From NCBI GenBank assembly GCA_004431415.1, contig QPMI01000038.1, positions 124,001 through 188,000 on the forward strand: a stretch of 64,000 nucleotides of DNA, written 5' to 3'. This stretch comes from Cyanophora paradoxa CCMP329. Taxonomy: Eukaryota; Plantae; Glaucophyta. This document shows, one piece after another, positions 23,266 to 43,549 of the stretch. Position 1 is the first letter of the stretch; every line of letters begins with the position of its first letter. A model generated the notes under the pieces. It searched no databases. It saw only the letters and a list, made by a program, of their open reading frames with translations, and had not been told where the DNA came from. Both the position numbers and the translations under genes were made by a program.

Positions 23266-23379
23266 AGTATGTAGTGGGAAGAAAAGGGACTTAAAAAATG
23301 ACACGTTATAGTAGTGATTATAGAGGTAGGATTCTACTACATTGTTTTAGAAACAACTACGGCTTGTTACTGTATATGG

Positions 23380-23650: not shown

Positions 23651-23717
23651 TTGCAACAAGAAAGGGGCTTAAAAAAATGACACGTTATAGTAGTGATTAT
23701 AGAGGTAGGATTTAACA

Positions 23718-24035: not shown

Positions 24036-24088
24036 GATTATTTCCAAAAAAATAACAAAAAACATGAAATTACTGTATTATTTCTTTT

Positions 24089-24421
24089 TCAAACCCGTTT
24101 AGAAAGGTCATAAACTCGTTTTACTACACCATTGATCCTCCGAGTATATGCTGAAATTCCAAAAACCTTTTTTATACTCAAACCTAAAACTCGTGGTGAA
24201 ACCTTTGAATCTAAAACTTGCTGTATTTGACTGAGTAAGATATCAGCCGGGATATATTCGCCATTCTTACTTATATCGAAGCAATATAGGAGGAAATCGC
24301 AAAAAGTCATAGGTCTCTTAACTTCATCGCTTTGTATTGAATTATTATAATCGTCTTCTTCTTCATCATCATAAATCTCAATAACGTAATCTGAATCTGT
24401 TTCATCCGTTACATATTCCAT
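24089..24421 (-). CDS. Stand-alone D5-C-like winged-helix protein with acidic N-terminus
   Basis: DFLLYCFDI...SPRVLGLSIKKVFG...RRINGVVKRVY pattern matches D5/P4-alpha C-terminal wHTH. Confidence 0.6.
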   Translation of the reverse strand: MEYVTDETDSDYVIEIYDDEEEDDYNNSIQSDEVKRPMTFCDFLLYCFDISKNGEYIPADILLSQIQQVLDSKVSPRVLGLSIKKVFGISAYTRRINGVVKRVYDLSKRV

Positions 24422-24604
24422 TCTATACGTTACAGATACTGTTTTTATCCGTTACATTTTATGGATGTATTTTATTGATTTATTCGATGATTACTTCAAG
24501 GACGTAGCAAAAAATGACGCTTTCCGAACATCCAAAAAGTATTTAAGGATTTGGGAAGTAAGATAAGTGAAATAGATATTATCTTGCTCTTATATAAAGG
24601 AAAA

Positions 24605-25030
24605 ATGGTGAGAACTCGGAAATCAAACCAAGAGCTTATTGCTATGCAGAAGGGTGCAGACCTCCCACGTGTTGAAAAGAAACCTACGCTAACAGAGGAA
24701 GAATGGGAAGAAAAAGCAAAGTTGAGACGTGAGAAAGACCGTGAGAGGAAACGTATTGTTTATCAAAAGGTGAAAGAAGAGAGAATCGCAAAAGGTGAAA
24801 AGACTGCAACTCCTCCTGAGAAATTGGAAAAGATGGCTTTGTATGTTCAACGTCGATATGCAGAAGATGAAGAATTCCGAAAGAGAAGAAAAGAGATTGT
24901 CCGGAGGTATCTGGAACGGAAACGACTTGAAAAGGTTGATGAGAAAGAGGCAATTAAGAAAACCGGACGTCCTCGTAAATACAATGCTTGTAATCCCGAT
25001 ACATCATCGGAAAGTATCGTAGCGAATTGA
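24605..25030 (+). CDS. Basic coiled-coil protein with AT-hook
   Basis: TGRPRKY AT-hook; paralog of 22538-22849; ATG at 24605 preferred to the upstream TTG. Confidence 0.75.
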   Translation: MVRTRKSNQELIAMQKGADLPRVEKKPTLTEEEWEEKAKLRREKDRERKRIVYQKVKEERIAKGEKTATPPEKLEKMALYVQRRYAEDEEFRKRRKEIVRRYLERKRLEKVDEKEAIKKTGRPRKYNACNPDTSSESIVAN

Positions 25031-25204
25031 TCGATCAGAGGTGAAAAAAATGACACTTAACTTTCTCCTTTTTTATAACCTAAGGCTAATCATTATAGTG
25101 CCGTGGGCAACCAAAAAGCATTTAAGGACTTCACAATAAGAACCAGTAAAGGGAATTCATCAATTTCCTCAGATTAATTTCTCTGAGAAAGGTAAGAATC
25201 CAAG

Positions 25205-27592
25205 ATGTTTAACGCCAAGCAACCCAACGCATCTGATATAACCCTCTCCGAGAAGGCTAACCGTCATGTCCTTAAATACCTGATCGAAAACTTTGATGAG
25301 TTGAAGTATCGCCCACAAGTCGATCCAACCGCCACTCTGACGCTTCTAAACAAATACTTTAAGAGTTTGAACCGAAGTGATCGCATCACTGTTAAATATC
25401 GCCAATGCTCACACAACACCGGGCGCTATTACTCTAACGTTCGAAACATAAAGAAAAAACAGGTTTCGATGCAAGAGATGCCCCGTGAATTTCGACACAC
25501 ACTTGCCCGTGAAAACTATATTGATATCGATATGATTAACGCTCACCCAACGCTTCTTATCCAATATTGTAAAAAAAATGAAATCGCATGCAACGCTCTT
25601 GCTAATTACGTTGAAAATCGCGACTCTATCATCGCCGATATAATCGAGAAATCGAGACTCACTCGTGAAGACATTAAACGTGCATTCCTTTCTGTTATTA
25701 ACGGCGGCGACGGAACTGACAACGAAGCTCTTCTCAATCACCCCGATTTCAAAAAATTAAAAGAGGAAATGGCTGGTATTCATGCTCTTATCGCAAACAT
25801 ACCCGAAAACAAAAACTACCTACTCATCTGCAAGAAGAAGAAAGACCACAACATCCTCGGTTCGGTAGTTAATATGGTTCTCTGTAATATCGAGAATCAA
25901 TGCCTCATGGCTCTTTGTGAGTATCTCACTTCACTGGGTATTAAGGTTGGAGTTCTCGTTTTCGATGGTTGTATGATTGAGAAAGACCCAAAATTTCCGG
26001 AAGAGCGTGTTGCATCCATCTTGAAGGAAGCATCGGAATATATCGAAAACACAATCGGTTATAAGGTTGGATTGCTGATTAAACCGATGGATCAAGGATT
26101 TGAAATCCCCGCAAATTTGGATGAAGGAATTCCTCTCTGCCGGGTAATTATCGACGATTCACATGCTGCCTCATTATTCGTTAATGATATCGAGGGGCAA
26201 ATCATCAAATGTGACGGTCGTATTTTCGCCCGGAAGGACGACAGCCTATGGACTGAGGATACGAAATTGGTGAAGGGAATTCTCTTAAAATTGTGCATGC
26301 AAGCGCATTTCGTGAAAGAAGACGCAAAAGGGAACCTGAGATCATATTCCGGTGAAACACCAAATGCTAAAAGAATCATCGAAGCTGTAATCCCTCTCCT
26401 TCCCAATCGTCAGAATTTCTACGAGGAGTTATGGAGTTCTACCATTGGGAAAATATGCTATCAGAACGGAGTGTATGATTTCAAGACAAAGAAGCTTACA
26501 CCGTGGAAGGATTGTAAGAATGTTTACTCGACTACTCGAATCTCTCGTGACCTTCCCGTGGATGATAACGGCTACATTCTCAAACCATCCGATGCTGATA
26601 TTCAGACTCTCTACGATAAAGTTCTTGAACCCGTTTTCGGTGCCGAAAGTGTAACGTCCGCTCTTGAATTTACGGCTCGTGCGGTTGCGGGTTGTTATGA
26701 AGATAAGCAATGGGGACTATCGGTGGGTGAACGTAATTGTGGAAAGGGGGTTTACGTCAATCTTCAAGAGAACACATGGGGCGATTATGTCCACACCATA
26801 AGCGGTGAGTCTTTCCTCTTAAACAAAAGCGTAGACGATAATGATACATCGAAATTGAAGTGGATGAAGCCATGTGAATTCCGTCGTTTGACTTTCACAC
26901 AAGAGATGAAATTCGATGTTTCAAACACCAATATCAAATTGAACGGCGCTATGATCAAAAAGAAGGAATCAGGTGGTGATATGCAATGTATGCGTGTTCT
27001 GTATGAGAATGAGGTTAACATTCGACTTCAAAGTCGTATATGGATGATCATGAATGATGTGCCGCCCGTCTCACCTTCTGATACACTCCAAACCATGGTA
27101 TTATTCAAGCATCCCCACAAATTCGTCGATCAGAAAACAGTTGAAGAGATGAATAGCCCGTGTTTCCGTTTGGCGTCAGAAGACATTAAAAGCGATCTGC
27201 TGCGACGTCCTGAAATTATTCACGCCTTTGAATACATGGTTTTCGAAGCCTTCAAGTCACAGAAGTTTGTGGTATCGGGGAAGATCGCCGAAGACGTAAG
27301 CGAGTTTCGTGAAGATGCGGGCGACGAAATGCAAATAATTAAAAGCGCATTCGAATTCACCCGTGATCCTTCCGATGCTGTATCAAGCAAAACAGTCGTT
27401 GATAAATTGAAGGAACTTAAACTTAACATGTCCGCGAATCGTATTAAAAGCGTTATGGTGTTGATGGGCGCTACATATAGTAAAGCTGCTATTCGAAAGG
27501 GAAATACAGCTACTTATGAACGAGGATATAAGGGCGTTAAATTGATCTCTACTACCCGATTTGTAGATGATGATGACGATGTCGAAGCGTAA
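25205..27592 (+). CDS. TVpol (PolA-family primase-polymerase) fused to D5-like SF3 helicase, 795 aa
   Basis: GRYY; motif A YIDIDMINAHP; motif B REDIKRAFLSVING; motif C VLVFDG; D5_N-like YQNGVYD; Walker A GERNCGKG; Walker B-like LTFTQE; sensor MIMND; C-terminal wHTH. Confidence 0.88.
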   Translation: MFNAKQPNASDITLSEKANRHVLKYLIENFDELKYRPQVDPTATLTLLNKYFKSLNRSDRITVKYRQCSHNTGRYYSNVRNIKKKQVSMQEMPREFRHTLARENYIDIDMINAHPTLLIQYCKKNEIACNALANYVENRDSIIADIIEKSRLTREDIKRAFLSVINGGDGTDNEALLNHPDFKKLKEEMAGIHALIANIPENKNYLLICKKKKDHNILGSVVNMVLCNIENQCLMALCEYLTSLGIKVGVLVFDGCMIEKDPKFPEERVASILKEASEYIENTIGYKVGLLIKPMDQGFEIPANLDEGIPLCRVIIDDSHAASLFVNDIEGQIIKCDGRIFARKDDSLWTEDTKLVKGILLKLCMQAHFVKEDAKGNLRSYSGETPNAKRIIEAVIPLLPNRQNFYEELWSSTIGKICYQNGVYDFKTKKLTPWKDCKNVYSTTRISRDLPVDDNGYILKPSDADIQTLYDKVLEPVFGAESVTSALEFTARAVAGCYEDKQWGLSVGERNCGKGVYVNLQENTWGDYVHTISGESFLLNKSVDDNDTSKLKWMKPCEFRRLTFTQEMKFDVSNTNIKLNGAMIKKKESGGDMQCMRVLYENEVNIRLQSRIWMIMNDVPPVSPSDTLQTMVLFKHPHKFVDQKTVEEMNSPCFRLASEDIKSDLLRRPEIIHAFEYMVFEAFKSQKFVVSGKIAEDVSEFREDAGDEMQIIKSAFEFTRDPSDAVSSKTVVDKLKELKLNMSANRIKSVMVLMGATYSKAAIRKGNTATYERGYKGVKLISTTRFVDDDDDVEA

Positions 27593-27659
27593 CTCTTGAT
27601 ATTAAACAGAGCATTCGTATTTTTTATAAATCGTAAGAGGTTTTTCTTACTGTTTAAGG

Positions 27660-28060
27660 TCGTTGGGCACTTCTTTTTTTACATATGTTACTCTTTCGAA
27701 AAGATGGTTTATATCTGTTCTATACCTATATTACTGTTTATGGTTTCATTGGGCACTTCTTTTATCATTGGGCACTTCTTTTTTTACATATGTTACTCTT
27801 TCGAAAAGATGGTTTATATCTGTTCTATACCTATATTACTGTTTATGGTTTCATTGGGCACTTCTTTTATCGTTGGGCACTTTTTAAATGTCATTGGGCA
27901 CTTTGGGCACCGTTTTAAGAAAGTTTTTCTATATAAAAAAATGTTTTGAATGAAATTAGAATTTTGAAAATGTATTCTAAGAAATCTTTTAGACCTTGGA
28001 TTAAAAAGTGCCCAAAGGTGCCCAACAAGTGCCCAACAGTGCCCAAAAAAATGCCCAATG
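27660..28060. promoter_or_regulatory. Origin-like module A directly downstream of the helicase gene, including a ~105-bp tandem duplication
   Basis: 7 TTGGGCAC then 4-5 GTGCCCAA copies around a ~95-bp AT-rich core. Confidence 0.6.
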
Positions 28061-28157
28061 GTTAAAGTAAAAACGTTGCTTCAAATCACATTTGATAATG
28101 CATCACATATACGAGAATGTTTACAAAAACAATTAATAAAATCACTCACCGAGCGTT

Positions 28158-28910
28158 TCACTCTGATTTATACGATTCCAAAAAGACCCACTCGAAACTG
28201 TGGATAATCTCGATACGATTCATTATATCTAAATGGGACATATACGGTTGCATACCAAAAACTGTGTTTCGCATGAAAGATACCAAACCTCCCCAATCAC
28301 CACGTTTTGCATAATCTTGATACATTTTATTATTTTGTTTGAAGGTGAGAGCATCATAAATGGCTTTCATCGTTTCATTAAGTGTCATTTTGTAAGAAAG
28401 CGGTCTCAAAATCTTATCGTACAACTCACTTATGTTAATTTCACACGGTTTTACGATCTTTCCCGTTTCATCTACAACGAGATCGCGAGATATACAATAA
28501 AAAGCATAGATTCCTTCACATTTATCCCATGCTATAAGTCTCTTTGTTTCTATATCGTAGACGCCGTTTTGATAACATAGTTTACCAATCGTAGACGGTC
28601 TCATAACCTGTTTATAAAAGTCGTTTCGATCTTCAAGAATCGCTTTTGAGATCTTAATGACCTTTTGAGCATTCGTTAAATTATGTGTATAACGGAGAAT
28701 CTCACCTTTACTGTTCTTCTTGTAGACATTCAAACGCATACATAGTTTGAGCATCGCTTGATTAATGAACGCTACATTATTCGTCCATAGGTGGTTATTT
28801 TGTTTAGTGTAAATGACACCATCAGATAGTATAAACTTGCCGTCGAGATCTTTTACAAACAATTCCGCGGCTTCATAATCGGAAGAGGCAAACACGAGAG
28901 ATTCCGACAT
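28158..28910 (-). CDS. Truncated helicase paralog (D5_N region; no polymerase, no P-loop)
   Basis: STIGKLCYQNGVYD, ISRDLVVD and EIIHSFE match STIGKICYQNGVYD, ISRDLPVD and EIIHAFE of the 795-aa protein. Confidence 0.85.
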   Translation of the reverse strand: MSESLVFASSDYEAAELFVKDLDGKFILSDGVIYTKQNNHLWTNNVAFINQAMLKLCMRLNVYKKNSKGEILRYTHNLTNAQKVIKISKAILEDRNDFYKQVMRPSTIGKLCYQNGVYDIETKRLIAWDKCEGIYAFYCISRDLVVDETGKIVKPCEINISELYDKILRPLSYKMTLNETMKAIYDALTFKQNNKMYQDYAKRGDWGGLVSFMRNTVFGMQPYMSHLDIMNRIEIIHSFEWVFLESYKSE

Positions 28911-29001
28911 GTTTCTTATTTTATTTCAAAGGTGCTTTTTCTTTAAATAGGAAAAAAGCACTTAAAGACATGTTAACTCTTATAATAAAACGAATCATCA
29001 G

Positions 29002-29733
29002 ATGGATTGTGTCATTTGTTTGAACAAGCTGAACCCAAAGAAGGCTACCAAACTCGAATGTGGTCACAAATTCTGTAAGAAGTGTTTTGATGATTGGGAT
29101 AAAGCGAATGTATCAAAGTATGATCTCCTACCAATTTGTAAAGGTAAACCGTTTTGTGATTCAGATGACGCTTTTTTAATTAATCTTTCTCTGTCGAAAG
29201 CATGGGTAAGTTGTCCTCTCTGTAAACAAGATCACACTTATATGAATTGGGAGACTTTCCATGGTAAGAAGAAGAAACCCGTTTTAAAGAAAGTGATATG
29301 TAAGATTTGGTTCGCTAAGGAGGACTGCGGCAATGTAGACGCTTGTGATCTTATCACAGATCAGAGACATTTAATAAAGTATATACCACTGAGCGATAGG
29401 AAATTAATGAAAGAGGGGAAAGATCCAAAATACGACCATTCGTATAATGTGATTACCTATTTTGAGAAATGCATAGCTGAACACGAAACAGACATACACA
29501 TGAATAACTGTATGTGTAATGATAAGAAATGTAGCAAAATATTCCCTGTGTCTGCGAAAGAGTGCAATTGTCTTAATCATACAACCCCTTGGGATTTCGA
29601 GAATTGGCTAAAAACATTTAATCCCGACTCGAAAGATTGGATGGATAGAATGACATTCTATAACAAAACTAAATATCACATCTCTACGGGTCAATTGAGA
29701 ATGCGAACGCGTGAGAACACCGCAAATTCATAA
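29002..29733 (+). CDS. RING-finger (C3HC4) protein, putative E3 ligase
   Basis: CVIC...CGHKFCKKC...(long insert)...CPLC; extra C-terminal Cys cluster. Confidence 0.8.
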   Translation: MDCVICLNKLNPKKATKLECGHKFCKKCFDDWDKANVSKYDLLPICKGKPFCDSDDAFLINLSLSKAWVSCPLCKQDHTYMNWETFHGKKKKPVLKKVICKIWFAKEDCGNVDACDLITDQRHLIKYIPLSDRKLMKEGKDPKYDHSYNVITYFEKCIAEHETDIHMNNCMCNDKKCSKIFPVSAKECNCLNHTTPWDFENWLKTFNPDSKDWMDRMTFYNKTKYHISTGQLRMRTRENTANS

Positions 29734-29891
29734 CATGTCCCTCTTTCAAACGCACTTTAATATGGGTCTTTTTTTTACAAACCTTCACAGAAATGTGTGG
29801 TTTTGCTTCACAGAACCGTGTAGGTTTATGTTTCGATCTACGCAAACAGCTACAATGTCCTGTATAGGTAGTTTTGAAAAATAAAGCGTTT

Positions 29892-30434
29892 TCACTCTTT
29901 CCTGTTCCGATAACATTCGCATTCTGAAAGAAATGACCTTAATATTAACTTCCTTATTGCGTCGCGACCTTCCCAATTGTTGTGATCTTTACCAAAAAGT
30001 TTGACAAAGTCTAAGATATGGATAAACTCAGGACGTGATACATAATTAGGTAAATCAAACGGCTCCGTTTCTATTTCCCAATAATTCACTTTGTAGAAAT
30101 ATAACAAACCGTCAGATCCCTTAGCATAATGTATATCGGGATTCTCCGTAAAATATCCGATTTGCTCAATTTTCCAGCGTCTCGCGACTATTATGTCGCT
30201 ATTATCTAATTCATTCATAAACATAATCAATCTATCGACATTGATTTTGATTAAGGAAGAATTAACTGAAAACACGGGTTTTCCGTCGTAAATATACGGC
30301 GTCTCCATCATTGCAATCAATCTTAGCACAGCGTTAGGATGTCTCCCATGCCGCTTAAATGGCTTCATTTTTTGCCCGCTCAAAAAATGAAACCATAACC
30401 TGTAATGCAACGCTCCGTTATGCAACGCATCCAT
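29892..30434 (-). CDS. Hypothetical protein (180 aa)
   Basis: ATG ORF, mirrored at 31883 with a late frameshift. Confidence 0.65.
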   Translation of the reverse strand: MDALHNGALHYRLWFHFLSGQKMKPFKRHGRHPNAVLRLIAMMETPYIYDGKPVFSVNSSLIKINVDRLIMFMNELDNSDIIVARRWKIEQIGYFTENPDIHYAKGSDGLLYFYKVNYWEIETEPFDLPNYVSRPEFIHILDFVKLFGKDHNNWEGRDAIRKLILRSFLSECECYRNRKE

Positions 30435-30607
30435 TTATGGTCGAATCTAATGATGCTACATATGTATTCGTCGAAAAAGAGAATTTACATTATGTTGCTC
30501 ATTGAAAACCTTAATATACTCTCTTTTTCCGGCTTACTAAAATAACAAATCCACTTTATGTGTGAAAAATCATTTAAAGTTAAAATAATAGACATTTCCA
30601 ATGTAAG

Positions 30608-31750
30608 ATGCCTTTAAAATTAACAAAAGAAAGTTTTATAGAAAAAGCGAAAACTGTCCATGGGGATGCATATGGATACGATGAAGTTATTTATGAACAT
30701 AGTTTAAGTGAAGTCACAATTTACTGCAAAGTATGTAATGCGTATTTCACCCAACTTCCTGTAAATCATTTAAGAAAAAAGGGGTGCCGAATGTGTGCAA
30801 TACAAAAACGAGCCTCTGCAAATCGTAATGAATTACATGATTTAATAAGTAAAGCTCAAAGAATTCATGGAGACAAATATGATTATTCCATGATCGAAAA
30901 GTATGAAGGGATGACAAAACACGTTAGCATTCTTTGTAAAACATGTAAAACAGAGTTTAAACAGACATTATCATGTCATATAAACTACAAATTTGGATGT
31001 AGAAAATGTGGACATGCAAAAAAAAGCAAAGAGTCCCGAATACCTATAACAGAAGTTTTAGAACGTTTTAGATCTCAGCATGGAGAAAAGTATGATTACA
31101 CACATGTGCAATTTGAAAAGACAAGTGATGTTATAAACATCTTCTGCAAAACATGTAATGAGAGTTTTAAGCAAAGAGTCGATTCACATTTTAAAACAGG
31201 TTGCCGAAAATGCGGTAATAAACAAAATGGGCTTAACTGTCGCTCCACACAGGAAGAAGTTATTAAACGTTTTGAGACAATCCATAATGGGGCTTTCGAC
31301 TATTCTTTGGTAAAATATCAGACCACAAAAACCAAAGTAAAAATAATATGCAAAAAATGTAATTGTATTTTTGAACAGACGCCGTCTAACCACTTTAAAA
31401 GAGGCTGTCCTAATTGCAAAGTTTCACATGGGGAAAGAAAAGTGAAACAGGTCTTAGACTCTTATAACTTTGATTACTTGCAACAGTTTAGTTTTCAGGA
31501 TTGTAGGTATAAATTACCTTTGAGATTCGATTTTTATATAACCTCTTTGCGAATTGCAATTGAATATGACGGAGAACAACATAGGAAAATTGTCAATTTT
31601 TTTGGAGGTAAAGAAGCATTTGAGGAAACACAAAAGCGGGATGGTATCAAAAACAGATACTGTGAGATCAACAATATCAAACTTTTGAGAATACCACACA
31701 CTGAAAAAGAAATAAAGGCGACTATTGACTTATTCTTAAAAACCCTCTAA
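30608..31750 (+). CDS. Endonuclease: four DUF723-like Zn-ribbon repeats plus C-terminal Vsr/DUF559-like PD-(D/E)XK domain
   Basis: 4x HG-x-x-(Y/F)-(D/G)-Y...CKxC...F-x-Q...H...GC-x-x-C; SHGE...FDFY...IEYDGEQH...D-x-x-KN-x-YC...LLRIP, an architecture known from giant-virus and phage putative homing endonucleases. Confidence 0.85.
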   Translation: MPLKLTKESFIEKAKTVHGDAYGYDEVIYEHSLSEVTIYCKVCNAYFTQLPVNHLRKKGCRMCAIQKRASANRNELHDLISKAQRIHGDKYDYSMIEKYEGMTKHVSILCKTCKTEFKQTLSCHINYKFGCRKCGHAKKSKESRIPITEVLERFRSQHGEKYDYTHVQFEKTSDVINIFCKTCNESFKQRVDSHFKTGCRKCGNKQNGLNCRSTQEEVIKRFETIHNGAFDYSLVKYQTTKTKVKIICKKCNCIFEQTPSNHFKRGCPNCKVSHGERKVKQVLDSYNFDYLQQFSFQDCRYKLPLRFDFYITSLRIAIEYDGEQHRKIVNFFGGKEAFEETQKRDGIKNRYCEINNIKLLRIPHTEKEIKATIDLFLKTL

Positions 31751-31882
31751 AAGACACATAAAGTGGATTTGTTATTTTAGTAAGCCGGAAAAAGAGAGTA
31801 TATTAAGGTTTTCAATGAGCAACATAATGTAAATTCTCTTTTTCGACGAATACATATGTAGCATCATTAGATTCGACCATAA

Positions 31883-32425
31883 ATGGATGCGTTGCATAAC
31901 GGAGCGTTGCATTACAGGTTATGGTTTCATTTTTTGAGCGGGCAAAAAATGAAACCATTTAAGCGGCATGGGAGACATCCTAACGCTGTGCTAAGATTGA
32001 TTGCAATGATGGAGACGCCGTATATTTACGACGGAAAACCCGTGTTTTCAGTTAATTCTTCCTTAATCAAAATCAATGTCGATAGATTGATTATGTTTAT
32101 GAATGAATTAGATAATAGCGACATAATAGTCGCGAGACGCTGGAAAATTGAGCAAATCGGATATTTTACGGAGAATCCCGATATACATTATGCTAAGGGA
32201 TCTGACGGTTTGTTATATTTCTACAAAGTGAATTATTGGGAAATAGAAACGGAGCCGTTTGATTTACCTAATTATGTATCACGTCCTGAGTTTATCCATA
32301 TCTTAGACTTTGTCAAACTTTTTGGTAAAGATCACAACAATTGGAAGGTCGCGACGCAATAAGGAAGTTAATATTAAGGTCATTTCTTTCAGAATGCGAA
32401 TGTTATCGGAACAGGAAAGAGTGAA
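31883..32425 (+). CDS. Mirror copy of the 180-aa hypothetical protein (1-nt deletion near 32345)
   Basis: Identical up to KDHNNW. Confidence 0.6.
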
Positions 32426-32581
32426 AACGCTTTATTTTTCAAAACTACCTATACAGGACATTGTAGCTGTTTGCGTAGATCGAAACATAAACCTACACGG
32501 TTCTGTGAAGCAAAACCACACATTTCTGTGAAGGTTTGTAAAAAAAGACCCATATTAAAGTGCGTTTGAAAGAGGGACATG

Positions 32582-33312
32582 TTATGAATTTGCGGTGTTC
32601 TCACGCGTTCGCATTCTCAATTGACCCGTAGAGATGTGATATTTAGTTTTGTTATAGAATGTCATTCTATCCATCCAATCTTTCGAGTCGGGATTAAATG
32701 TTTTTAGCCAATTCTCGAAATCCCAAGGGTTGTATGATTAAGACAATTGCACTCTTTCGCAGACACAGGGAATATTTTGCTACATTTCTTATCATTACAC
32801 ATACAGTTATTCATGTGTATGTCTGTTTCGTGTTCAGCTATGCATTTCTCAAAATAGGTAATCACATTATACGAATGGTCGTATTTTGGATCTTTCCCCT
32901 CTTTCATTAATTTCCTATCGCTCAGTGGTATATACTTTATTAAATGTCTCTGATCTGTGATAAGATCACAAGCGTCTACATTGCCGCAGTCCTCCTTAGC
33001 GAACCAAATCTTACATATCACTTTCTTTAAAACGGGTTTCTTCTTCTTACCATGGAAAGTCTCCCAATTCATATAAGTGTGATCTTGTTTACAGAGAGGA
33101 CAACTTACCCATGCTTTCGACAGAGAAAGATTAATTAAAAAAGCGTCATCTGAATCACAAAACGGTTTACCTTTACAAATTGGTAGGAGATCATACTTTG
33201 ATACATTCGCTTTATCCCAATCATCAAAACACTTCTTACAGAATTTGTGACCACATTCGAGTTTGGTAGCCTTCTTTGGGTTCAGCTTGTTCAAACAAAT
33301 GACACAATCCAT
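32582..33312 (-). CDS. Mirror copy of the RING protein (frameshift near 32728)
   Basis: Identical up to LNHTT. Confidence 0.75.
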
Positions 33313-33405
33313 CTCTGATGATTCGTTTTATTATAAGAGTTAACATGTCTTTAAGTGCTTTTTTCCTATTTAAAGAAAAAGCACCTTTGAAATAAAATAA
33401 GAAAC

Positions 33406-34158
33406 ATGTCGGAATCTCTCGTGTTTGCCTCTTCCGATTATGAAGCCGCGGAATTGTTTGTAAAAGATCTCGACGGCAAGTTTATACTATCTGATGGTGT
33501 CATTTACACTAAACAAAATAACCACCTATGGACGAATAATGTAGCGTTCATTAATCAAGCGATGCTCAAACTATGTATGCGTTTGAATGTCTACAAGAAG
33601 AACAGTAAAGGTGAGATTCTCCGTTATACACATAATTTAACGAATGCTCAAAAGGTCATTAAGATCTCAAAAGCGATTCTTGAAGATCGAAACGACTTTT
33701 ATAAACAGGTTATGAGACCGTCTACGATTGGTAAACTATGTTATCAAAACGGCGTCTACGATATAGAAACAAAGAGACTTATAGCATGGGATAAATGTGA
33801 AGGAATCTATGCTTTTTATTGTATATCTCGCGATCTCGTTGTAGATGAAACGGGAAAGATCGTAAAACCGTGTGAAATTAACATAAGTGAGTTGTACGAT
33901 AAGATTTTGAGACCGCTTTCTTACAAAATGACACTTAATGAAACGATGAAAGCCATTTATGATGCTCTCACCTTCAAACAAAATAATAAAATGTATCAAG
34001 ATTATGCAAAACGTGGTGATTGGGGAGGTTTGGTATCTTTCATGCGAAACACAGTTTTTGGTATGCAACCGTATATGTCCCATTTAGATATAATGAATCG
34101 TATCGAGATTATCCACAGTTTCGAGTGGGTCTTTTTGGAATCGTATAAATCAGAGTGA
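33406..34158 (+). CDS. Mirror copy of the truncated helicase paralog
   Basis: Identical 250 aa. Confidence 0.85.
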   Translation: MSESLVFASSDYEAAELFVKDLDGKFILSDGVIYTKQNNHLWTNNVAFINQAMLKLCMRLNVYKKNSKGEILRYTHNLTNAQKVIKISKAILEDRNDFYKQVMRPSTIGKLCYQNGVYDIETKRLIAWDKCEGIYAFYCISRDLVVDETGKIVKPCEINISELYDKILRPLSYKMTLNETMKAIYDALTFKQNNKMYQDYAKRGDWGGLVSFMRNTVFGMQPYMSHLDIMNRIEIIHSFEWVFLESYKSE

Positions 34159-34719
34159 AACGCTCGGTGAGTGATTTTATTAATTGTTTTTGTAAACATT
34201 CTCGTATATGTGATGCATTATCAAATGTGATTTGAAGCAACGTTTTTACTTTAACCATTGGGCATTTTTTTGGGCACTGTTGGGCACTTGTTGGGCACCT
34301 TTGGGCACTTTTTAATCCAAGGTCTAAAAGATTTCTTAGAATACATTTTCAAAATTCTAATTTCATTCAAAACATTTTTTATATAGAAAAACTTTCTTAA
34401 AACGGTGCCCAAAGTGCCCAATGACATTTAAAAAGTGCCCAACGATAAAAGAAGTGCCCAATGAAACCATAAACAGTAATATAGGTATAGAACAGATATA
34501 AACCATCTTTTCGAAAGAGTAACATATGTAAAAAAGAAGTGCCCAATGATAAAAGAAGTGCCAATGAAACCATAAACAGTAATATAGGTATAGAACAGAT
34601 ATAAACCATCTTTTCGAAAGAGTAACATATGTAAAAAAAGAAGTGCCCAACGACCTTAAACAGTAAGAAAACCTCTTACGATTTATAAAAAATACGAATG
34701 CTCTGTTTAATATCAAGAG

Positions 34720-37106
34720 TTACGCTTCGACATCGTCATCATCATCTACAAATCGGGTAGTAGAGATCAATTTAACGCCCTTATATCCTCGTTCATAAGT
34801 AGCTGTATTTCCCTTTCGAATAGCAGCTTTACTATATGTAGCGCCCATCAACACCATAACGCTTTTAATACGATTCGCGGACATGTTAAGTTTAAGTTCC
34901 TTCAATTTATCAACGACTGTTTTGCTTGATACAGCATCGGAAGGATCACGGGTGAATTCGAATGCGCTTTTAATTATTTGCATTTCGTCGCCCGCATCTT
35001 CACGAAACTCGCTTACGTCTTCGGCGATCTTCCCCGATACCACAAACTTCTGTGACTTGAAGGCTTCGAAAACCATGTATTCAAAGGCGTGAATAATTTC
35101 AGGACGTCGCAGCAGATCGCTTTTAATGTCTTCTGACGCCAAACGGAAACACGGGCTATTCATCTCTTCAACTGTTTTCTGATCGACGAATTTGTGGGGA
35201 TGCTTGAATAATACCATGGTTTGGAGTGTATCAGAAGGTGAGACGGGCGGCACATCATTCATGATCATCCATATACGACTTTGAAGTCGAATGTTAACCT
35301 CATTCTCATACAGAACACGCATACATTGCATATCACCACCTGATTCCTTCTTTTTGATCATAGCGCCGTTCAATTTGATATTGGTGTTTGAAACATCGAA
35401 TTTCATCTCTTGTGTGAAAGTCAAACGACGGAATTCACATGGCTTCATCCACTTCAATTTCGATGTATCATTATCGTCTACGCTTTTGTTTAAGAGGAAA
35501 GACTCACCGCTTATGGTGTGGACATAATCGCCCCATGTGTTCTCTTGAAGATTGACGTAAACCCCCTTTCCACAATTACGTTCACCCACCGATAGTCCCC
35601 ATTGCTTATCTTCATAACAACCCGCAACCGCACGAGCCGTAAATTCAAGAGCGGACGTTACACTTTCGGCACCGAAAACGGGTTCAAGAACTTTATCGTA
35701 GAGAGTCTGAATATCGGCATCGGATGGTTTGAGAATGTAGCCGTTATCATCCACGGGAAGGTCACGAGAGATTCGAGTAGTCGAGTAAACATTCTTACAA
35801 TCCTTCCACGGTGTAAGCTTCTTTGTCTTGAAATCATACACTCCGTTCTGATAGCATATTTTCCCAATGGTAGAACTCCATAACTCCTCGTAGAAATTCT
35901 GACGATTGGAAGGAGAGGGATTACAGCTTCGATGATTCTTTTAGCATTTGGTGTTTCACCGGAATATGATCTCAGGTTCCCTTTTGCGTCTTCTTTCACG
36001 AAATGCGCTTGCATGCACAATTTTAAGAGAATTCCCTTCACCAATTTCGTATCCTCAGTCCATAGGCTGTCGTCCTTCCGGGCGAAAATACGACCGTCAC
36101 ATTTGATGATTTGCCCCTCGATATCATTAACGAATAATGAGGCAGCATGTGAATCGTCGATAATTACCCGGCAGAGAGGAATTCCTTCATCCAAATTTGC
36201 GGGGATTTCAAATCCTTGATCCATCGGTTTAATCAGCAATCCAACCTTATAACCGATTGTGTTTTCGATATATTCCGATGCTTCCTTCAAGATGGATGCA
36301 ACACGCTCTTCCGGAAATTTTGGGTCTTTCTCAATCATACAACCATCGAAAACGAGAACTCCAACCTTAATACCCAGTGAAGTGAGATACTCACAAAGAG
36401 CCATGAGGCATTGATTCTCGATATTACAGAGAACCATATTAACTACCGAACCGAGGATGTTGTGGTCTTTCTTCTTCTTGCAGATGAGTAGGTAGTTTTT
36501 GTTTTCGGGTATGTTTGCGATAAGAGCATGAATACCAGCCATTTCCTCTTTTAATTTTTTGAAATCGGGGTGATTGAGAAGAGCTTCGTTGTCAGTTCCG
36601 TCGCCGCCGTTAATAACAGAAAGGAATGCACGTTTAATGTCTTCACGAGTGAGTCTCGATTTCTCGATTATATCGGCGATGATAGAGTCGCGATTTTCAA
36701 CGTAATTAGCAAGAGCGTTGCATGCGATTTCATTTTTTTTACAATATTGGATAAGAAGCGTTGGGTGAGCGTTAATCATATCGATATCAATATAGTTTTC
36801 ACGGGCAAGTGTGTGTCGAAATTCACGGGGCATCTCTTGCATCGAAACCTGTTTTTTCTTTATGTTTCGAACGTTAGAGTAATAGCGCCCGGTGTTGTGT
36901 GAGCATTGGCGATATTTAACAGTGATGCGATCACTTCGGTTCAAACTCTTAAAGTATTTGTTTAGAAGCGTCAGAGTGGCGGTTGGATCGACTTGTGGGC
37001 GATACTTCAACTCATCAAAGTTTTCGATCAGGTATTTAAGGACATGACGGTTAGCCTTCTCGGAGAGGGTTATATCAGATGCGTTGGGTTGCTTGGCGTT
37101 AAACAT
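34720..37106 (-). CDS. Mirror copy of TVpol-SF3 helicase (single frameshift near 35908)
   Basis: The 482-aa and 373-aa ORFs together cover the 795-aa protein. Confidence 0.85.
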
Positions 37107-37279
37107 CTTGGATTCTTACCTTTCTCAGAGAAATTAATCTGAGGAAATTGATGAATTCCCTTTACTGGTTCTTATTGTGAAGTCCTTAAATGCTTTTTGG
37201 TTGCCCACGGCACTATAATGATTAGCCTTAGGTTATAAAAAGGAGAAAGTTAAGTGTCATTTTTTTCACCTCTGATCGA

Positions 37280-37705
37280 TCAATTCGCTACGATACTTTC
37301 CGATGATGTATCGGGATTACAAGCATTGTATTTACGAGGACGTCCGGTTTTCTTAATTGCCTCTTTCTCATCAACCTTTTCAAGTCGTTTCCGTTCCAGA
37401 TACCTCCGGACAATCTCTTTTCTTCTCTTTCGGAATTCTTCATCTTCTGCATATCGACGTTGAACATACAAAGCCATCTTTTCCAATTTCTCAGGAGGAG
37501 TTGCAGTCTTTTCACCTTTTGCGATTCTCTCTTCTTTCACCTTTTGATAAACAATACGTTTCCTCTCACGGTCTTTCTCACGTCTCAACTTTGCTTTTTC
37601 TTCCCATTCTTCCTCTGTTAGCGTAGGTTTCTTTTCAACACGTGGGAGGTCTGCACCCTTCTGCATAGCAATAAGCTCTTGGTTTGATTTCCGAGTTCTC
37701 ACCAT
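37280..37705 (-). CDS. Mirror copy of the AT-hook coiled-coil protein
   Basis: Identical translation. Confidence 0.75.
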   Translation of the reverse strand: MVRTRKSNQELIAMQKGADLPRVEKKPTLTEEEWEEKAKLRREKDRERKRIVYQKVKEERIAKGEKTATPPEKLEKMALYVQRRYAEDEEFRKRRKEIVRRYLERKRLEKVDEKEAIKKTGRPRKYNACNPDTSSESIVAN

Positions 37706-37888
37706 TTTTCCTTTATATAAGAGCAAGATAATATCTATTTCACTTATCTTACTTCCCAAATCCTTAAATACTTTTTGGATGTTCGGAAAGCGTCATTTTT
37801 TGCTACGTCCTTGAAGTAATCATCGAATAAATCAATAAAATACATCCATAAAATGTAACGGATAAAAACAGTATCTGTAACGTATAGA

Positions 37889-38221
37889 ATGGAATATGTA
37901 ACGGATGAAACAGATTCAGATTACGTTATTGAGATTTATGATGATGAAGAAGAAGACGATTATAATAATTCAATACAAAGCGATGAAGTTAAGAGACCTA
38001 TGACTTTTTGCGATTTCCTCCTATATTGCTTCGATATAAGTAAGAATGGCGAATATATCCCGGCTGATATCTTACTCAGTCAAATACAGCAAGTTTTAGA
38101 TTCAAAGGTTTCACCACGAGTTTTAGGTTTGAGTATAAAAAAGGTTTTTGGAATTTCAGCATATACTCGGAGGATCAATGGTGTAGTAAAACGAGTTTAT
38201 GACCTTTCTAAACGGGTTTGA
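37889..38221 (+). CDS. Mirror copy of the winged-helix protein
   Basis: Identical translation. Confidence 0.6.
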   Translation: MEYVTDETDSDYVIEIYDDEEEDDYNNSIQSDEVKRPMTFCDFLLYCFDISKNGEYIPADILLSQIQQVLDSKVSPRVLGLSIKKVFGISAYTRRINGVVKRVYDLSKRV

Positions 38222-38274
38222 AAAAGAAATAATACAGTAATTTCATGTTTTTTGTTATTTTTTTGGAAATAATC

Positions 38275-38592
38275 CTAAATTAAACCGAGAAGATAACTAA
38301 GAACTATTGCCTCGTTTCGTTTGTCAATCTTCTTTCTTAGTTTCAACTGTAAGCGATTACCACTGTGTCTTACATCATGATCGAAACTCTCAAATGTTTT
38401 TGTCATTGAGGAGATCGCTTTCTCTTCAAGTATGCGTTTTAATTTAGACGGTATCTGACTTGGTTTATATCCTTCACATCTTGCTCGTGCTTCAACTGTT
38501 TTCTTCAATATCTCATCTCGTTTTTCTGAGTGTAAGTCTGTAAAATCAACTCCCAGTTCGTGAAGGTGAGTAGAGAAATTAGCGCACGCCAT
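38275..38592 (-). CDS. Mirror copy of the 105-aa hypothetical protein
   Basis: Identical translation. Confidence 0.65.
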   Translation of the reverse strand: MACANFSTHLHELGVDFTDLHSEKRDEILKKTVEARARCEGYKPSQIPSKLKRILEEKAISSMTKTFESFDHDVRHSGNRLQLKLRKKIDKRNEAIVLSYLLGLI

Positions 38593-39455
38593 TGTTAAAT
38601 CCTACCTCTATAATCACTACTATAACGTGTCATTTTTTTAAGCCCTTTCTTGTTGCAACTATCTGACGCTTGTTTTGACAGTCTGACTTTTTTAATCGAG
38701 GTTTTAAAAAAAGATTTCTTGGAGTGTGTTTTCTAAATTCAAATTTTATAAAATCATTCATTATTAAGAAAACTTTTCAAAACAGTGTCAACAGTGTCAG
38801 AATACATTTAAATAGTGTCAGAAGAAAAGAAAGTGTCAGACAAACCATATTACAGTAAGAGTGAGAATGATTAAAGAAGACCACAATTTTCATTTTGTGG
38901 CGATTTAAAAACAGAATGTCAGACAGACCATATACAGTAACAAGCCGTAGTTGTTTCTAAAACAATGTAGTAGAATCCTACCTCTATAATCACTACTATA
39001 ACGTGTCATTTTTTAAGTCCTTTTCTTCCCACTACATACTTTCAGGCACTTCCCAGATCGCTACACGCTTTCAGTCTCTTTATCACAAAAAGCGATATGT
39101 AATTTTCAGATTGACAGGCACTTTTTTCAGGCAGTCAGGCACTTTCAGGCGCTTTTAATCGAGAGTCTAAAAAATCTTTCTTAAATTTGTTTTTAAAATT
39201 CAATTTCATTGTGTTTTGTTTTTTCTATAAAAAAAGTTTCCTAAAAATGTGCCTGAAATGCCTGATGACATTTAAAAAGTGCCTGACGATCATAAACAGT
39301 AAGAGAAATCTTAAAATAGTGAAAAGATCGAGTATATTAGTGGTGCAATCATAAATCTAAAAGTGCCTGATAGTCATTTATAGTAAGAAAATGCCTTAAC
39401 TCACTGAAATAAAGGCATCAGAGAAAGAACAACCCACGGTCTCATGGTTTCCGCA

Positions 39456-39767
39456 TTAAGAAGATCTGGCGATTTTCTTGTTTCTATAATACTCTCGTGA
39501 TTTCTCACGCTGTCGATTGCGAAACTCTTCATCTTCCGCGTATCGTTGCATTTGGTAACGGCTACTATTTGCGATTCTATTCGGAGGCGTGATTGTTGGC
39601 TCACCGTCTTCCATTCGTTTCTGTTTGACTTTTTCATAAAATTTCCGATTATATTCTCTAATCTTTTCACGTCTCAAAAAGAGCATTTCAGGTGTCACTT
39701 TGCAAGGCATAATGTAAACTTCCCCTCTCTGTTCCGCCATCAGTTGCTGATTTGATTTACGAGGCAT
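39456..39767 (-). CDS. Mirror copy of the small basic protein
   Basis: Identical translation. Confidence 0.75.
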   Translation of the reverse strand: MPRKSNQQLMAEQRGEVYIMPCKVTPEMLFLRREKIREYNRKFYEKVKQKRMEDGEPTITPPNRIANSSRYQMQRYAEDEEFRNRQREKSREYYRNKKIARSS

Positions 39768-40278
39768 TGTAGTTTTACTTTCATATATATTATCGTTTTA
39801 TCCTTAAATCTATGAGAGTAAGAGATTTATATATAAAAGTAGATTTTGAATCTTCTTCTTACTACAAATGGTCATTGGGCACTTCATTTAGAACGCTTCT
39901 TTTTTTCATTAAAGATGGTCTATATCTCTACAATATTTGTATTACAGTAAGTGGTTTCATTGGGCACTTCTTTTATCATTGGGCACTTTTTAAATGTCAT
40001 TGGGCACTTTGGGCACCGTTTTAAGAAAGTTTTTCTATATAAAAAATGTTTTGAATGAAATTAGAATTTTGAAAATGTATTCTAAGAAATCTTTTAGACC
40101 TTGGATTAAAAAGTGCCCAAAGGTGCCCAACAAGTGCCCAACAAGTGCCCAACAACGCCCAATAACGCCCAACAGCCCAAAAAAACCCAATCGTAAGTAA
40201 ACGATCGGATATGAGGAGGCTTACGAACTCATGCGATGATTTAAGAAGAAGCGACATTGATTATAAAAGAATCATAAC

Positions 40279-40584
40279 ATGAATATTCTGTATATCGGAT
40301 CAACACCCGAGTTGGTTGCTTACAAGACTTACAAAGTCGGGTTATCATCAACCGATTCAGTAAATGATGTGATTAATAAGCAATCATCGAAAGCGTTTTC
40401 AATCTACGGGTGGTTCAAATGTAGAAACCCACGATTAGTAAAGAAGCATTTATGTGACCTTTATGAGCATGAAGGCGATTTCTTTCTTTTTGAGTCATTG
40501 GAAGCCACAAGATCATGTGTAGAACTCATTATAAAGACGTGGTTAAATGATCAATACGACAAAGAAGGAAACTTAATACTCTAA
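40279..40584 (+). CDS. Mirror copy of the T5orf172-like protein
   Basis: Identical translation. Confidence 0.65.
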   Translation: MNILYIGSTPELVAYKTYKVGLSSTDSVNDVINKQSSKAFSIYGWFKCRNPRLVKKHLCDLYEHEGDFFLFESLEATRSCVELIIKTWLNDQYDKEGNLIL

Positions 40585-40678
40585 AAACAAGACACTGTCT
40601 AAGTGCGTTTAAGGTCAATTTCCAAAAGAAAACCCACTTAAAGATAAGACAACTCATATATATATAAAAAGCGACATA

Positions 40679-41511
40679 ATGGCGGTTTATATCGGATCAG
40701 TCCCGGAATTTCAAGCGAACAATAAGTATAAAATTGGTGTCTCAACTGTTTCGGTAAGTAATCTCATTTCTCAATACTCACGAGCTTTACCCAACTTTTC
40801 AATTTATGAGTGGATCTATTGTAGCAATCCACGCTTAATCGAGAAGTTATGTAAGAAAGAGTTCGAGAGTTGTGAAGGCGAATACTACAAATTGGATTCG
40901 TTGCGTTCAGCAAGGGCGCGAATTCGTCAGATGATAAAAAAGAATCTATATGAGGAATCAGAAGAAGAGCCAATAGATTGGAACGAGGTTATAGATGACT
41001 ACCTTGAATGCAATTATGTTTTTTCCGGAGATTCAAGCAAATACACACCTCAATACGTGCTACTTGGCGATGTTTTCGGAATGTTAAAAATTCCAATGCG
41101 CCAAATTTCGATGAGTCTGATATTCTTTATCGAGTTCGTGAAGTGTTCAATGGTTTAAATCCAACTTCTCAGATGTTTTACGATGAGATGCTCTATGTTT
41201 TCAAAGGTCTCGTGAAGATCGAAACGCAAACTACAACAGAGACCAAAAACGAAAAAGAGAAAGATATCGAGACGATTGTATGTGATTTTATAAATGAGAG
41301 CTACACTTTAACCAACGACCTCAGTAAATTCACCCGTTGTAGCGATATATTTAATCATTGTTTAGAGTTAATCGACAAAGATATATGGGTAGAATCACGT
41401 GGGATAAGCAATATAATTAAGAAACGCTTTAAGATTGAATCATCGGTAATGAAATACAAAGGTAATTCGGTTAGAGTATATCGCGGTTTGGTTAAAAAGA
41501 ATCAAAACTAA
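40679..41511 (+). CDS. Mirror copy of T5orf172-wHTH protein (frameshift in A-run near 41090)
   Basis: Two ORFs cover the 277-aa protein. Confidence 0.65.
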
Positions 41512-41519
41512 AACGAGAA

Positions 41520-42161
41520 ATGCTTCATTTTTACAGAGATACCATTAATAAAGATTGTATCCAATCGAGAACCACAAAAAGACTACATGAAATTCAACAT
41601 ATCATAAAAGAACATACACAATGGGTGGTGGATTTCTTCAAAACCATAAAAACCTTCAAACTACTTAAAGGGAAAACATCTATGATAATAAAAAGACCAG
41701 AAATGGAGCCATTTGTGTATAACGGTGGATCAACCACAGAACCGAAGGATTATTACGGTGTTTATGTCTTAGATATCGGAGATCCAGAGGAATACGCGCA
41801 TAAGATCGAGCGATACGGTGCGAAATGGGCATACGATGTGAAACATTATTATGTCGAGGATAAATACCATCGTCTCTTAAAAGAGTTTGCGACGATAGAC
41901 CCTATGGTTTTCGAGCCGAATTATTACGACATCGTACGTCGTCGATACTTTGTTGGTGATATCAAACTGAGATTACCCGAATTCGAACAAAAACGTATTT
42001 TCTTGCAATCATCTTTACGGAAATACATGAAGAAGCAAGGCGCTAAATACGAGCCACGTTATCGAATGTGGTATGTCACAGATCACGAAAATGAATTATG
42101 CAAGATTTTTAAGACATTCTCAGAAGTTGAAATACGTAGACGTCGTAATATGAGACGGTAA
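41520..42161 (+). CDS. Mirror copy of the DUF5710-like protein
   Basis: Identical translation. Confidence 0.6.
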   Translation: MLHFYRDTINKDCIQSRTTKRLHEIQHIIKEHTQWVVDFFKTIKTFKLLKGKTSMIIKRPEMEPFVYNGGSTTEPKDYYGVYVLDIGDPEEYAHKIERYGAKWAYDVKHYYVEDKYHRLLKEFATIDPMVFEPNYYDIVRRRYFVGDIKLRLPEFEQKRIFLQSSLRKYMKKQGAKYEPRYRMWYVTDHENELCKIFKTFSEVEIRRRRNMRR

Positions 42162-42934
42162 ATGGTGTGTCTCAATCGGACATAATGCAGCACAGATACA
42201 ATTTTATAACAGTAAAAAACAGAATCCCATTTTATCAATTGTTTAATCGGACGCAATGCAACTCAGTGTCCCTTTTTCATTATTTTTATCACAGCAATCT
42301 CAACGATTATTTAATTGGACATAATGCACCACAGATACAATTTTATAACAGTAAAAAACAGAATCCCATTTTATCGATTGTTTAATTGGACATAATGCAA
42401 CTCTGGGGTCATTTTTGTTTTCCGCAATCTCATCGATTGTTTAATTGGACGTGAAGCAGTAACCATCTAATCCAACAAAATACGCCGCAATCTCATCGAT
42501 TGTTTAATTGGACATAATGCAGTAACGAGTGAATTATTTTCATCCGATATTTCATCGATTGTTTAATTGGACATAATGCAACTCTGTGTGAATTTTTGCG
42601 TTTTACGATAAAATGGGCGCTGGACTACTTCAATCGTGATTGATTATATCATAAATTTATGTTCCCTCAATCGAGATTATATCGATTTTGCATAAAATAC
42701 AAATTAATCGCGTTTATATCAATCGCAAAATACGTATTTTTCATTTAAATACAAATTAATCGCGTTTATATCATTAAATCAATCGAGAAATACGTAATTT
42801 ATCAAAAATTTATATAAATTTCATAAAATCATAATTTAATTGATATTATACCAATTAATTTAATCGAATTTATTTAAATTTAATTGATTTTATTAAAAAT
42901 TTTGATTTATTTTTTAAATATTTTCGATTAATTT

Positions 42935-43041
42935 ACACATAAAGAAATACAAATTTAAATCCTGAGCGACAGAGCGAAATGAGCGCGAAGCGCGAATTGA
43001 GCGATAGAGCGAGGGATTTAAATTTGTATTTCTTTATGTGT
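42935..43041. repeat. Right terminal hairpin (28-bp stem, 51-nt GAGCG-rich loop)
   Basis: Same 28-bp stem at 42935-42962 and 43014-43041. Confidence 0.92.
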
Positions 43042-43549
43042 GACCCTTCTCGCCGGCGGCGGCGCCGGCGCCGGCGCCGAAGCCAGCGCCGCCGCCGTCC
43101 CCGCCCGAGATCTGCATCGCCTTGACGAGGTGCTTCAGGTTCGCGGCGTCCGCCGGCGAGAGAACCGCCGCCATCTGCCGCCCGCCACGTCAAACTAATC
43201 TTAACGAACAAATTTAAATCAAATGATCTAGATAGCCTAAGGCGGCTTGGGTGTGGCGGTAGAGTTGAGGCTAGACTAGTCCGTCCTGGGCGGCTGCAAC
43301 CTAAGGCTATCTATCTCCCCGCCACTTCAATCAATCCTAACCTAACAAACAAAGCAAACCAAATCCAAAGGACGCGGACCTCGGCCTGGCCGCCCAAAGA
43401 GTTCGTGAGGTGTTCTTATCAACTCTCTATAGCTATAACCTAAGAAACAAACAAACAGCTGCAAATAAATACCTCGTCCTGGCCGCCCGGGAAGAGGGCC
43501 TTGAGGACGGCCCGCCAGTTATGATGGAATGAACCATAACCCCCCAAAT

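Follow-up and report, generated by a model that had tools for sequence, protein, structure and literature searches.

The right end of a low-GC, virus-like element is formed by a terminal palindrome in which the 3'-terminal strand can be zipped up by tandem G·A pairs. The element occupies 23,937 bases (19105-43041) of the window, that is, of the whole stretch of 64,000 nucleotides that was analysed. Its right terminal palindrome (42935..43041, + strand) consists of a 28-bp arm (42935-42962), a loop of 51 nt (42963-43013) and a second 28-bp arm (43014-43041). The zipper in this loop is real and exactly as it was described in the initial annotation, and it looks selected. We lean towards the view that the end is self-priming, with the 3' strand folding back and the zipper and its cap stabilising and marking that strand.

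The right terminal palindrome and its loop

At the right end, the + strand is both the 3'-terminal and the purine-rich strand. As the initial annotation had claimed, this is the true 3' terminus of the element, since a 6-bp target duplication lies directly outside. The stem pairs over 28 bp with no mismatch (42935-42962 with 43014-43041). With loop base i paired to base 52-i, the loop (42963..43013, + strand) has 12 Watson-Crick pairs, five tandem GA/GA steps, one T·G and one C·A pair. The five 5'-GA/5'-GA steps are found at 42964-65/43011-12, 42968-69/43007-08, 42972-73/43003-04, 42976-77/42999-43000 and 42981-82/42994-95; the mismatches of another kind are the T·G at 42963/43013 and the C·A at 42970/43006. 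The apex is a GAA within a GCGC-GAA-GCGC cap (42983..42993, + strand), which contains the GCGAAGC mini-hairpin. The cap sequence matches twice in the window, once per element end, where 0.18 matches are expected. The register, the five steps, the two other mismatches, the cap and the stem were thus all confirmed, each at its position. The statement that the steps are flanked by Watson-Crick pairs needs a small correction, as the outermost step adjoins the T·G and the second one the C·A pair.

A pyrimidine-GA-purine context is cited for tandem sheared pairs in an NMR paper on CGAG blocks (PMC10085684). Three of the five steps have this context on both strands, and two are mixed.

We quantified these observations in two ways. 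When the 24 mismatched bases were permuted and the 12 Watson-Crick pairs kept fixed, five GA steps were reached in none of 1,000,000 permutations and four steps in 53. The gapped fold-back score of the loop is 42.5, and none of 2000 dinucleotide shuffles scored as high (mean 12.1, sd 4.8). Note that five GA steps do arise in 47 of 2000 dinucleotide shuffles once gaps are allowed. Zippers of at least three tandem steps were searched for in the window and in 160 replicase-linked loci, and the right loop was the only one. ViennaRNA, which leaves the G·A steps unpaired, gave no sign of a zipper for the 51-nt loop alone (z = +0.66). Finally, the loop's two 3-base spacers are each other's exact reverse complement, whereas the GA steps are direct repeats; neither templated fold-back alone nor slippage alone would yield this combination.

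Strand specificity

According to the initial annotation, only the 3'-terminal strand folds back fully. This has to be corrected, as the 28-bp stem and the 12 Watson-Crick pairs of the loop form on both strands. The energy of the stem alone is -23.6 kcal/mol for the 3' strand and -23.5 kcal/mol for its complement, and that of the whole right palindrome is -32.1 vs -29.4 kcal/mol. At three termini the whole-palindrome energies favour the 3' strand, by 2.7, 1.4 and 6.3 kcal/mol. Since standard parameters fail to explain the stability of mini-hairpins (PMC13037366), the true gap between the strands is probably larger than the computed one. Because the stem is available to both strands, the priming geometry does not need the zipper, and the zipper is the strand-specific part. 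As far as geometry goes, a fold-back of the 3' strand would pair the terminal 3'-OH at 42935, with the template continuing inward, as in a primer-template.

The left end and a sister terminus

The left terminal palindrome (19105..19189; here the - strand is the 3'-terminal purine strand) has 28-bp arms identical to those of the right end. Its loop is only 29 nt long (19133-19161) and consists of three tandem GCGAAGC heptamers. In register, it shows the same cap, a GAA/GAA motif, two G-C pairs, a GGA/GGA motif and an A·G pair; judging by its sequence, it could form three mini-hairpins instead. The central 15 bases are common to both loops and the right loop is 11 bases longer on each side, so that the register is preserved. 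This symmetric 11+11 indel also preserves the cap and the adjoining sheared motif. Taken alone, the left loop is not significant in the gapped test (267 of 2000 shuffles are as good), in which the score has no term for GAA/GAA.

A third terminus in the window, overlooked in the initial annotation, belongs to the remnant of a sister element (16032..16315, + strand). It has perfect 28-bp arms around an A-rich, imperfectly folding loop of 228 nt. Its arms are identical to the main arm at 18 of 28 bases; 10 of the 28 stem pairs are changed, and all of them are still paired. The arm length of 28 bp, the terminal 7-mer, the closing CC/GG, an N·G pair and the first GA/GA step are kept. The loop starts with an A·G pair, one tandem GA/GA step and three G-C pairs. 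While its fold-back beats all of 100 shuffles, there is no overall excess of GA steps, as 60 of 100 shuffles reach five. In a crude alignment of one half of the loop against the other, purines face each other in 28 of 40 mismatches, most often as A·A. The AT-rich remnant itself spans 14748-16315, and its subterminal similarity to the main element is weak (75% over 64 bases); its left end was not found in the window.

The initial annotation had asked whether other copies keep the GA/GA register. The outcome did not refute its proposal: the left end keeps the register through the symmetric indel, and the purine strand is at the 3' end in all three termini of the window. The sister end retains a single basal step. 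From the sister terminus and the 160 related loci it is clear that the five-step zipper is not universal for this replicase.

Other copies in short-read contigs

Further copies were seen only through short-read contigs of the runs X1, X2, X3, X6 and X17, which are five of the 21 runs listed. Contigs of X1 and X2 cover 42959-43018 with no difference, and X6 has a gap-free contig over 42915-43041. An assembly artefact is thereby ruled out for the right loop alone. The contigs of X3 and X17 do not cover the 51-nt loop, which we do not count as absence, and depth ratios are not taken as copy number.

The loop is invariant in the short-read contigs while the arms show 2 or 3 differences. The counts match between the two arms (2 and 2, 3 and 3), with positions read for the inner arm only (42948 and 42957), and suggest compensated stem variants. 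The same element end is also followed by other flanking sequences, at least four in number, so the family occupies several insertion sites. Of the 21 runs listed, 20 contain part of the left arm, and all are labelled as one organism. The purine orientation of the three window termini is also that of record 2 of X1 and record 28 of X6, and none of the 15 loose ends listed has the opposite one. In record 15 of X2 there are two unread letters beyond 43041 (depth 186), which fits either a head-to-head junction or two insertions that share two flank letters. A 31-base contig of X3 (record 19) lies on 43011-43041 with 4 differences and a depth of 2800, the flank having about 32; it hints at a larger sister family of ends.

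The element and its inverted arms

With 36% GC, the element lies amid DNA of mostly 55-75% GC. The host is probably a GC-rich eukaryote. It is flanked by the target-site duplication GACCCT (left copy 19099..19104, right copy 43042..43047, + strand). Several traits of polinton-like viruses (PLVs) are present, namely terminal inverted repeats (TIRs), low GC and a target duplication within the range of 5-6 bp. The palindrome is inside the TIR, adjoins the target duplication and occurs together with a replicase other than pPolB, as in the palindrome-ended virophages and PLVs of Halocafeteria.

In this assembly, nearly the whole element is a giant inverted repeat. The left arm (19105..30563, + strand) is 99.8% identical over 10.8 kb to the right arm (31754..43041, - strand), and the two arms, about 11.4 kb each, enclose a unique centre of 1.19 kb (30564-31753). 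Compared with the left arm, the right arm has about 20 single-base deletions in homopolymer runs, several of which shift reading frames; they are probably long-read consensus errors.

The terminal 10-mer recurs at 30554..30563 (+ strand), which is the exact inner edge of the left arm, and in mirror image at 31754-31763. In the window it occurs only in the four terminal arms and at these two inner edges; the chance of finding it at a fixed place is 2e-6. The inner 10-mers have no palindromic partner arm alongside, so each arm has a hairpin at one end only. No target duplication was found at the inner joints. A separate insertion of each 11.4-kb arm was rejected for this locus, since no duplicate of the outer flanks is present at the inner ones. 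To judge from these edges, an end-specific enzyme that cuts after the 10-mer probably built a tail-to-tail composite, either from a true 11.4-kb unit or by way of a cryptic internal end.

A subterminal repeat array with a spacing of 59-71 bases is present at 42229..42598 (+ strand), with a mirror array at 19544-20075; its repeats are possible candidates for binding by the replicase. There are also intergenic stems of 15-21 bp with loops of 51-113 nt made of short tandem repeats (22184-22326, 27873-28015 and 15688-15789), with mirrors at 34301-34442 and 39979-40120. Comparable long-loop stems are found near the replicase gene in many related loci, and these stem-loops are candidate internal origins or promoters.

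Genes of the element and its surroundings

The replicase is a TVpol-type protein of 795 aa (25205..27592, + strand) with a PolA-fold N-terminal domain and a D5/SF3 helicase C-terminal part. This left-arm copy is intact; the copy in the right arm (34720-37106, - strand) is frameshifted in the assembly. The polymerase domain has the invariant D107 and D254. Its N-terminal model (pLDDT 92) matches the fold of Klenow-type polymerases with an E value of 4.4e-07, and the C-terminal part matches D5 helicases. A sequence search of the PDB with the polymerase alignment gave nothing significant, and the PolA match came from the fold search. As modelled, the protein is a TVpol-SF3 helicase, which is a PLV type of replicase. 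A truncated helicase paralogue (28158-28910), 40% identical to the replicase over 186 aa, has no polymerase domain and lacks most of the ATPase domain.

The centre of the element is filled by an endonuclease gene of 380 aa (30608..31750, + strand; phrog_559, E 1e-73). A MUG113-domain protein is encoded at 20790..21623 (- strand; 31.3 bits, cut-off 22.3), and a short paralogue, 40% identical, at 21719-22024. MUG113 belongs to the GIY-YIG superfamily. Both proteins are candidate end-cutting nucleases. The left arm also encodes a RING protein. Besides replicase and nuclease, all left-arm ORFs have at most 277 aa.

Among 12 ORFs of the element that were compared with Pfam and PHROGs, there was no match to a major or minor capsid protein or a packaging ATPase; these collections may miss PLV capsids, and the scan of 12 ORFs excluded shorter ones in alternative frames. 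In the same 12 ORFs (19105-43041) no gene for an rve integrase or a tyrosine recombinase was found, nor a match to an HUH Rep/NS1 nickase or a resolvase. Atlas searches with the ORFs of 213 aa and 180 aa gave only leads under 0.9.

Outside the element, the window contains an rve integrase gene (about 11476-13726), interrupted by a GC-rich insertion with a flanking 19-base direct repeat. The 3' part of this gene, together with an element of about 800 bases that has short terminal inverted repeats, is duplicated at 44226-46139 (99.8% over 1917 bases), 1.2 kb to the right of the main element. Going by sequence, the interrupted locus is a possible source of integrase in trans. The window also holds a retrotransposon-type reverse transcriptase, RNase H and integrase (5662-9804) and a GC-rich minisatellite with a period of about 27 bases (16834-17700).

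Searches for relatives of the terminus

A degenerate pattern of the full terminus had no match in viral contigs. Patterns of the loop core matched 8, 70 and 52 stretches, and no long stem was found around them. At least three sheared motifs occur in 3 of these 130 stretches, two of which are heptamer arrays and the third L223. Three GA steps were not reached by any of the 52 loose pattern matches. Of 8 neighbouring proteins, 5 match phage families and 3 match nothing. None of the 160 replicase-linked loci has a zipper of at least three tandem steps. Three of them (L001, L058 and L128) have AT-rich palindromes at their ends that lack GA steps, and these may be genuine termini or products of the assembly. 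In summary, no homologous terminus was found outside the source organism, neither in viral contigs nor in the 160 loci. When viral contigs were scanned with one protein at a time (replicase, rve protein or MUG113 protein), no loci came up, and a phage collection gave no match. An RNA family was rejected, as Rfam gave two weak matches far under threshold.

Some similar structures were seen in passing. The phage contig L173 has, at 995-1024, a near-identical stretch after a terminase gene, a GCGAAGC hairpin with sheared motifs; about 21 bases are common to it and the left loop, presumably through convergence. Another GCGAAGC hairpin with sheared motifs is found in the phage contig L223, near 1575-1607 (- strand). 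Two large viral contigs, L161 and L165, contain arrays of at least 15 tandem GCGAAGC heptamers.

A proposed self-priming end and its alternatives

We envisage the following course of events. After excision or unwinding, the 3' arm would pair with the inner arm and leave a recessed 3'-OH. The cap would nucleate the folding, and the zipper would remove the single-stranded loop on the 3' strand, so that this strand, once zipped, would be favoured over re-annealing, single-strand binding proteins and nucleases. The terminal base would then prime copying by the element's own polymerase-helicase, and its extension would either close the end as a hairpin or produce a head-to-head junction, perfectly palindromic apart from the loop. 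As such a junction is symmetric except for the loop, only the loop could show an end-cutting enzyme on which arm to act, so that one orientation is kept; and if ends regenerate from junctions with the purine strand always at the 3' side, the loop must be read. At the left ends of parvoviruses, a GA/GAA mismatch overcomes this difficulty (PMC1185569). Integration might be carried out in trans by an integrase of the retroviral type.

This interpretation is based on a register far beyond chance, the symmetric indel, the complementary spacers of the right loop, the geometry of the sister end with its pairing kept, the unchanged loop in short-read contigs whose arms vary, and the PolA/D5 replicase. 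Published work on the motifs is consistent with it: GCGAAGC hairpins withstand heat and nucleases, and SSB binds only poorly to a related mini-hairpin (PMC13037366); NMR has shown stable hairpins in which tandem G·A blocks follow one another between G-C pairs (PMC10085684). The link of terminal palindromes with replicases other than pPolB in Halocafeteria virophages and PLVs (10.64898/2026.07.28.741278) also fits. Several points speak against it. The stem can form on either strand, and the computed difference between the strands is small (1.4-6.3 kcal/mol), if possibly underestimated. TVpol, for which a role as primase-polymerase was predicted (PMC2579912), may work without a hairpin primer. 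There is no match to an HUH nickase or resolvase among the element's ORFs, the left loop is a simple triple heptamer and not significant alone, the sister loop has no GA excess, and no homologous terminus came up outside the source organism in the searches above.

Alternatively, the folded loop could be a recognition signal: the replicase, acting as a primase, or a nuclease of the element would bind the strand-specific hairpin and start synthesis or cut nearby, and the hairpin would not itself be a primer. The predicted priming ability of TVpol (PMC2579912) fits here, and so do the mini-hairpins at the priming sites of phage G4 and ssiA and at N4 promoters (PMC13037366). The element encodes suitable candidates with its MUG113-domain protein, the paralogue and the central endonuclease, and GIY-YIG nucleases that cut single-stranded DNA site-specifically do exist (PMC11893778). 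A signal of this kind, however, accounts neither for the exact coincidence of the outer arm's end with the terminal base nor for the arm length of 28 bp in three of three termini, and with loops that differ in sequence and in length (29, 51 and 228 nt) there is little for sequence-specific binding beyond the loop base. We regard it as unlikely.

In a further alternative, which seems to us quite unlikely, the zipper would protect the end, allow a helper virus to package the DNA or load an integrase, and replication would begin at another site, such as the internal palindromes close to the replicase gene. Mini-hairpins do resist exonucleases (PMC13037366), and the mismatches of the vaccinia hairpin are needed for virion maturation and not for DNA synthesis or telomere resolution (PMC8956199). 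Internal stem-loops are at hand (22184-22326 and 27873-28015), and the near-identical motif in L173 comes right after a terminase gene. On the other hand, no capsid or packaging gene was found among the ORFs of the element, and for protection the cap would suffice, with no need for a stem placed as for priming.

Very improbable, finally, is a neutral by-product, with a palindrome from fold-back repair and a loop from slippage of GAGC or GCGAAGC that pairs automatically through G·A: the triple heptamer of the left loop, the heptamer arrays of at least 15 units in the unrelated contigs L161 and L165, the unaided folding of CGAG repeats (PMC10085684) and the accidental annealing named as an alternative in the Halocafeteria preprint (10.64898/2026.07.28.741278) would all suit it, but it conflicts with the symmetric indel, the complementary spacers of equal length, the same base geometry at a diverged sister end, the same strand polarity at three of three ends, and the failure of all 52 loose matches in viral contigs to reach three steps.

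Starting from the self-priming end, a bolder proposal can be made, although we find it rather doubtful: the element may be a capsid-less eukaryotic rolling-hairpin replicon that has its own PolA-helicase and no HUH Rep, with the zipper as a strand code and the 11.4-kb arm as the unit. The zipper would let only the 3' strand fold completely and would tell an end-specific nuclease or integrase on which side of an otherwise symmetric junction to cut. The 11.4-kb arms, bounded by the terminal 10-mer, would have come together tail to tail, with a captured endonuclease gene between them.

Comparison with known systems

The closest ends that we know from the literature are those of the endogenous virophages of Halocafeteria seosinensis (subtypes 1, 2, 5 and 6) and of a PLV (subtype 4), which have terminal palindromes (10.64898/2026.07.28.741278). 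As in our element, the palindrome is at the extremity of the TIR beside the target duplication and the replicase is not pPolB; hairpin priming by the terminal palindromes of virophages and PLVs has already been proposed there. In the Halocafeteria screen, gaps were limited to 10 nt, and the main text does not mention a loop, spacer, mismatch or sheared pair, while the supplements may show such loops. Our element differs in its strand-specific loops of 29-228 nt, in having no detectable capsid or integrase genes, and in being almost wholly an inverted repeat.

At the left end of parvoviruses (MVM, LuIII) a 3' hairpin primes synthesis (PMC1185569); the likeness here is one of geometry only. In that end a GA/GAA mismatch makes the dimer junction asymmetric, and the end is reported in one orientation only, a reading that the same paper questions. 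However, parvoviruses rely on a host polymerase, an NS1 nickase and a single-stranded genome, whereas our element has its own PolA-helicase, no HUH gene found among its 12 scanned ORFs, and is integrated with a 6-bp duplication.

The GCGAAGC mini-hairpins and CGAG-block DNA share with our loop the cap and the tandem G·A steps alternating with G-C pairs (PMC13037366, PMC10085684). These motifs are described at phage and plasmid priming sites, at N4 promoters and in a human promoter repeat; the passages of both papers do not place them at the ends of eukaryotic integrating virus-like elements. The flip-and-flop telomeres of vaccinia are similar in having an incompletely paired terminal hairpin whose structure weighs more than its sequence (PMC8956199), but they are covalently closed, occur in both orientations and are needed for packaging, whereas here only the purine orientation is clearly seen, in integrated copies and contigs.

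With the PLVs and virophages that have a TVpol-SF3 helicase, our element shares the replicase architecture, the low GC and the TIRs (PMC2579912, PMC12220804, 10.64898/2026.10.13.758929). According to the same sources, 6-bp duplications are typical of rve integrases, and PolA modules near endonucleases have been proposed to be self-mobile. However, PolA replicases are mostly found with tyrosine recombinases and not with DDE integrases (10.64898/2026.10.13.758929), and TIRs were screened between 0.1 and 8 kb in PMC12220804, compared with about 11.4 kb here. The element works like a palindrome-ended PLV, and we file it as a capsid-less relative, since neither capsid nor integrase genes were found among its 12 scanned ORFs.

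A description of a GA zipper at ends of this kind did not come up in the literature searched, most subscription papers being outside it. None is given in passages of PMC11296320, PMC12220804 and 10.64898/2026.10.13.758929, of 10.1101/2022.05.02.489867 and PMC12480563, or in passages from 12 of 18 places in 10.1101/2022.07.28.501842, whose one match to "palindrom" lies outside those 12.

The end bears on how PLVs and virophages that lack a protein-primed polymerase begin and complete the copying of a linear genome; the passages cited on TVpol show no activity of it. The right end provides a substrate of 107 bases, and two natural variants of it are available together with the gene of the matching replicase. 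Oligonucleotides and a single recombinant protein would thus suffice to tell self-priming from primase action. If the zipper does read out strand identity, it would be a case of natural non-Watson-Crick DNA pairing that serves as an orientation signal for a genome end in a eukaryotic mobile element.
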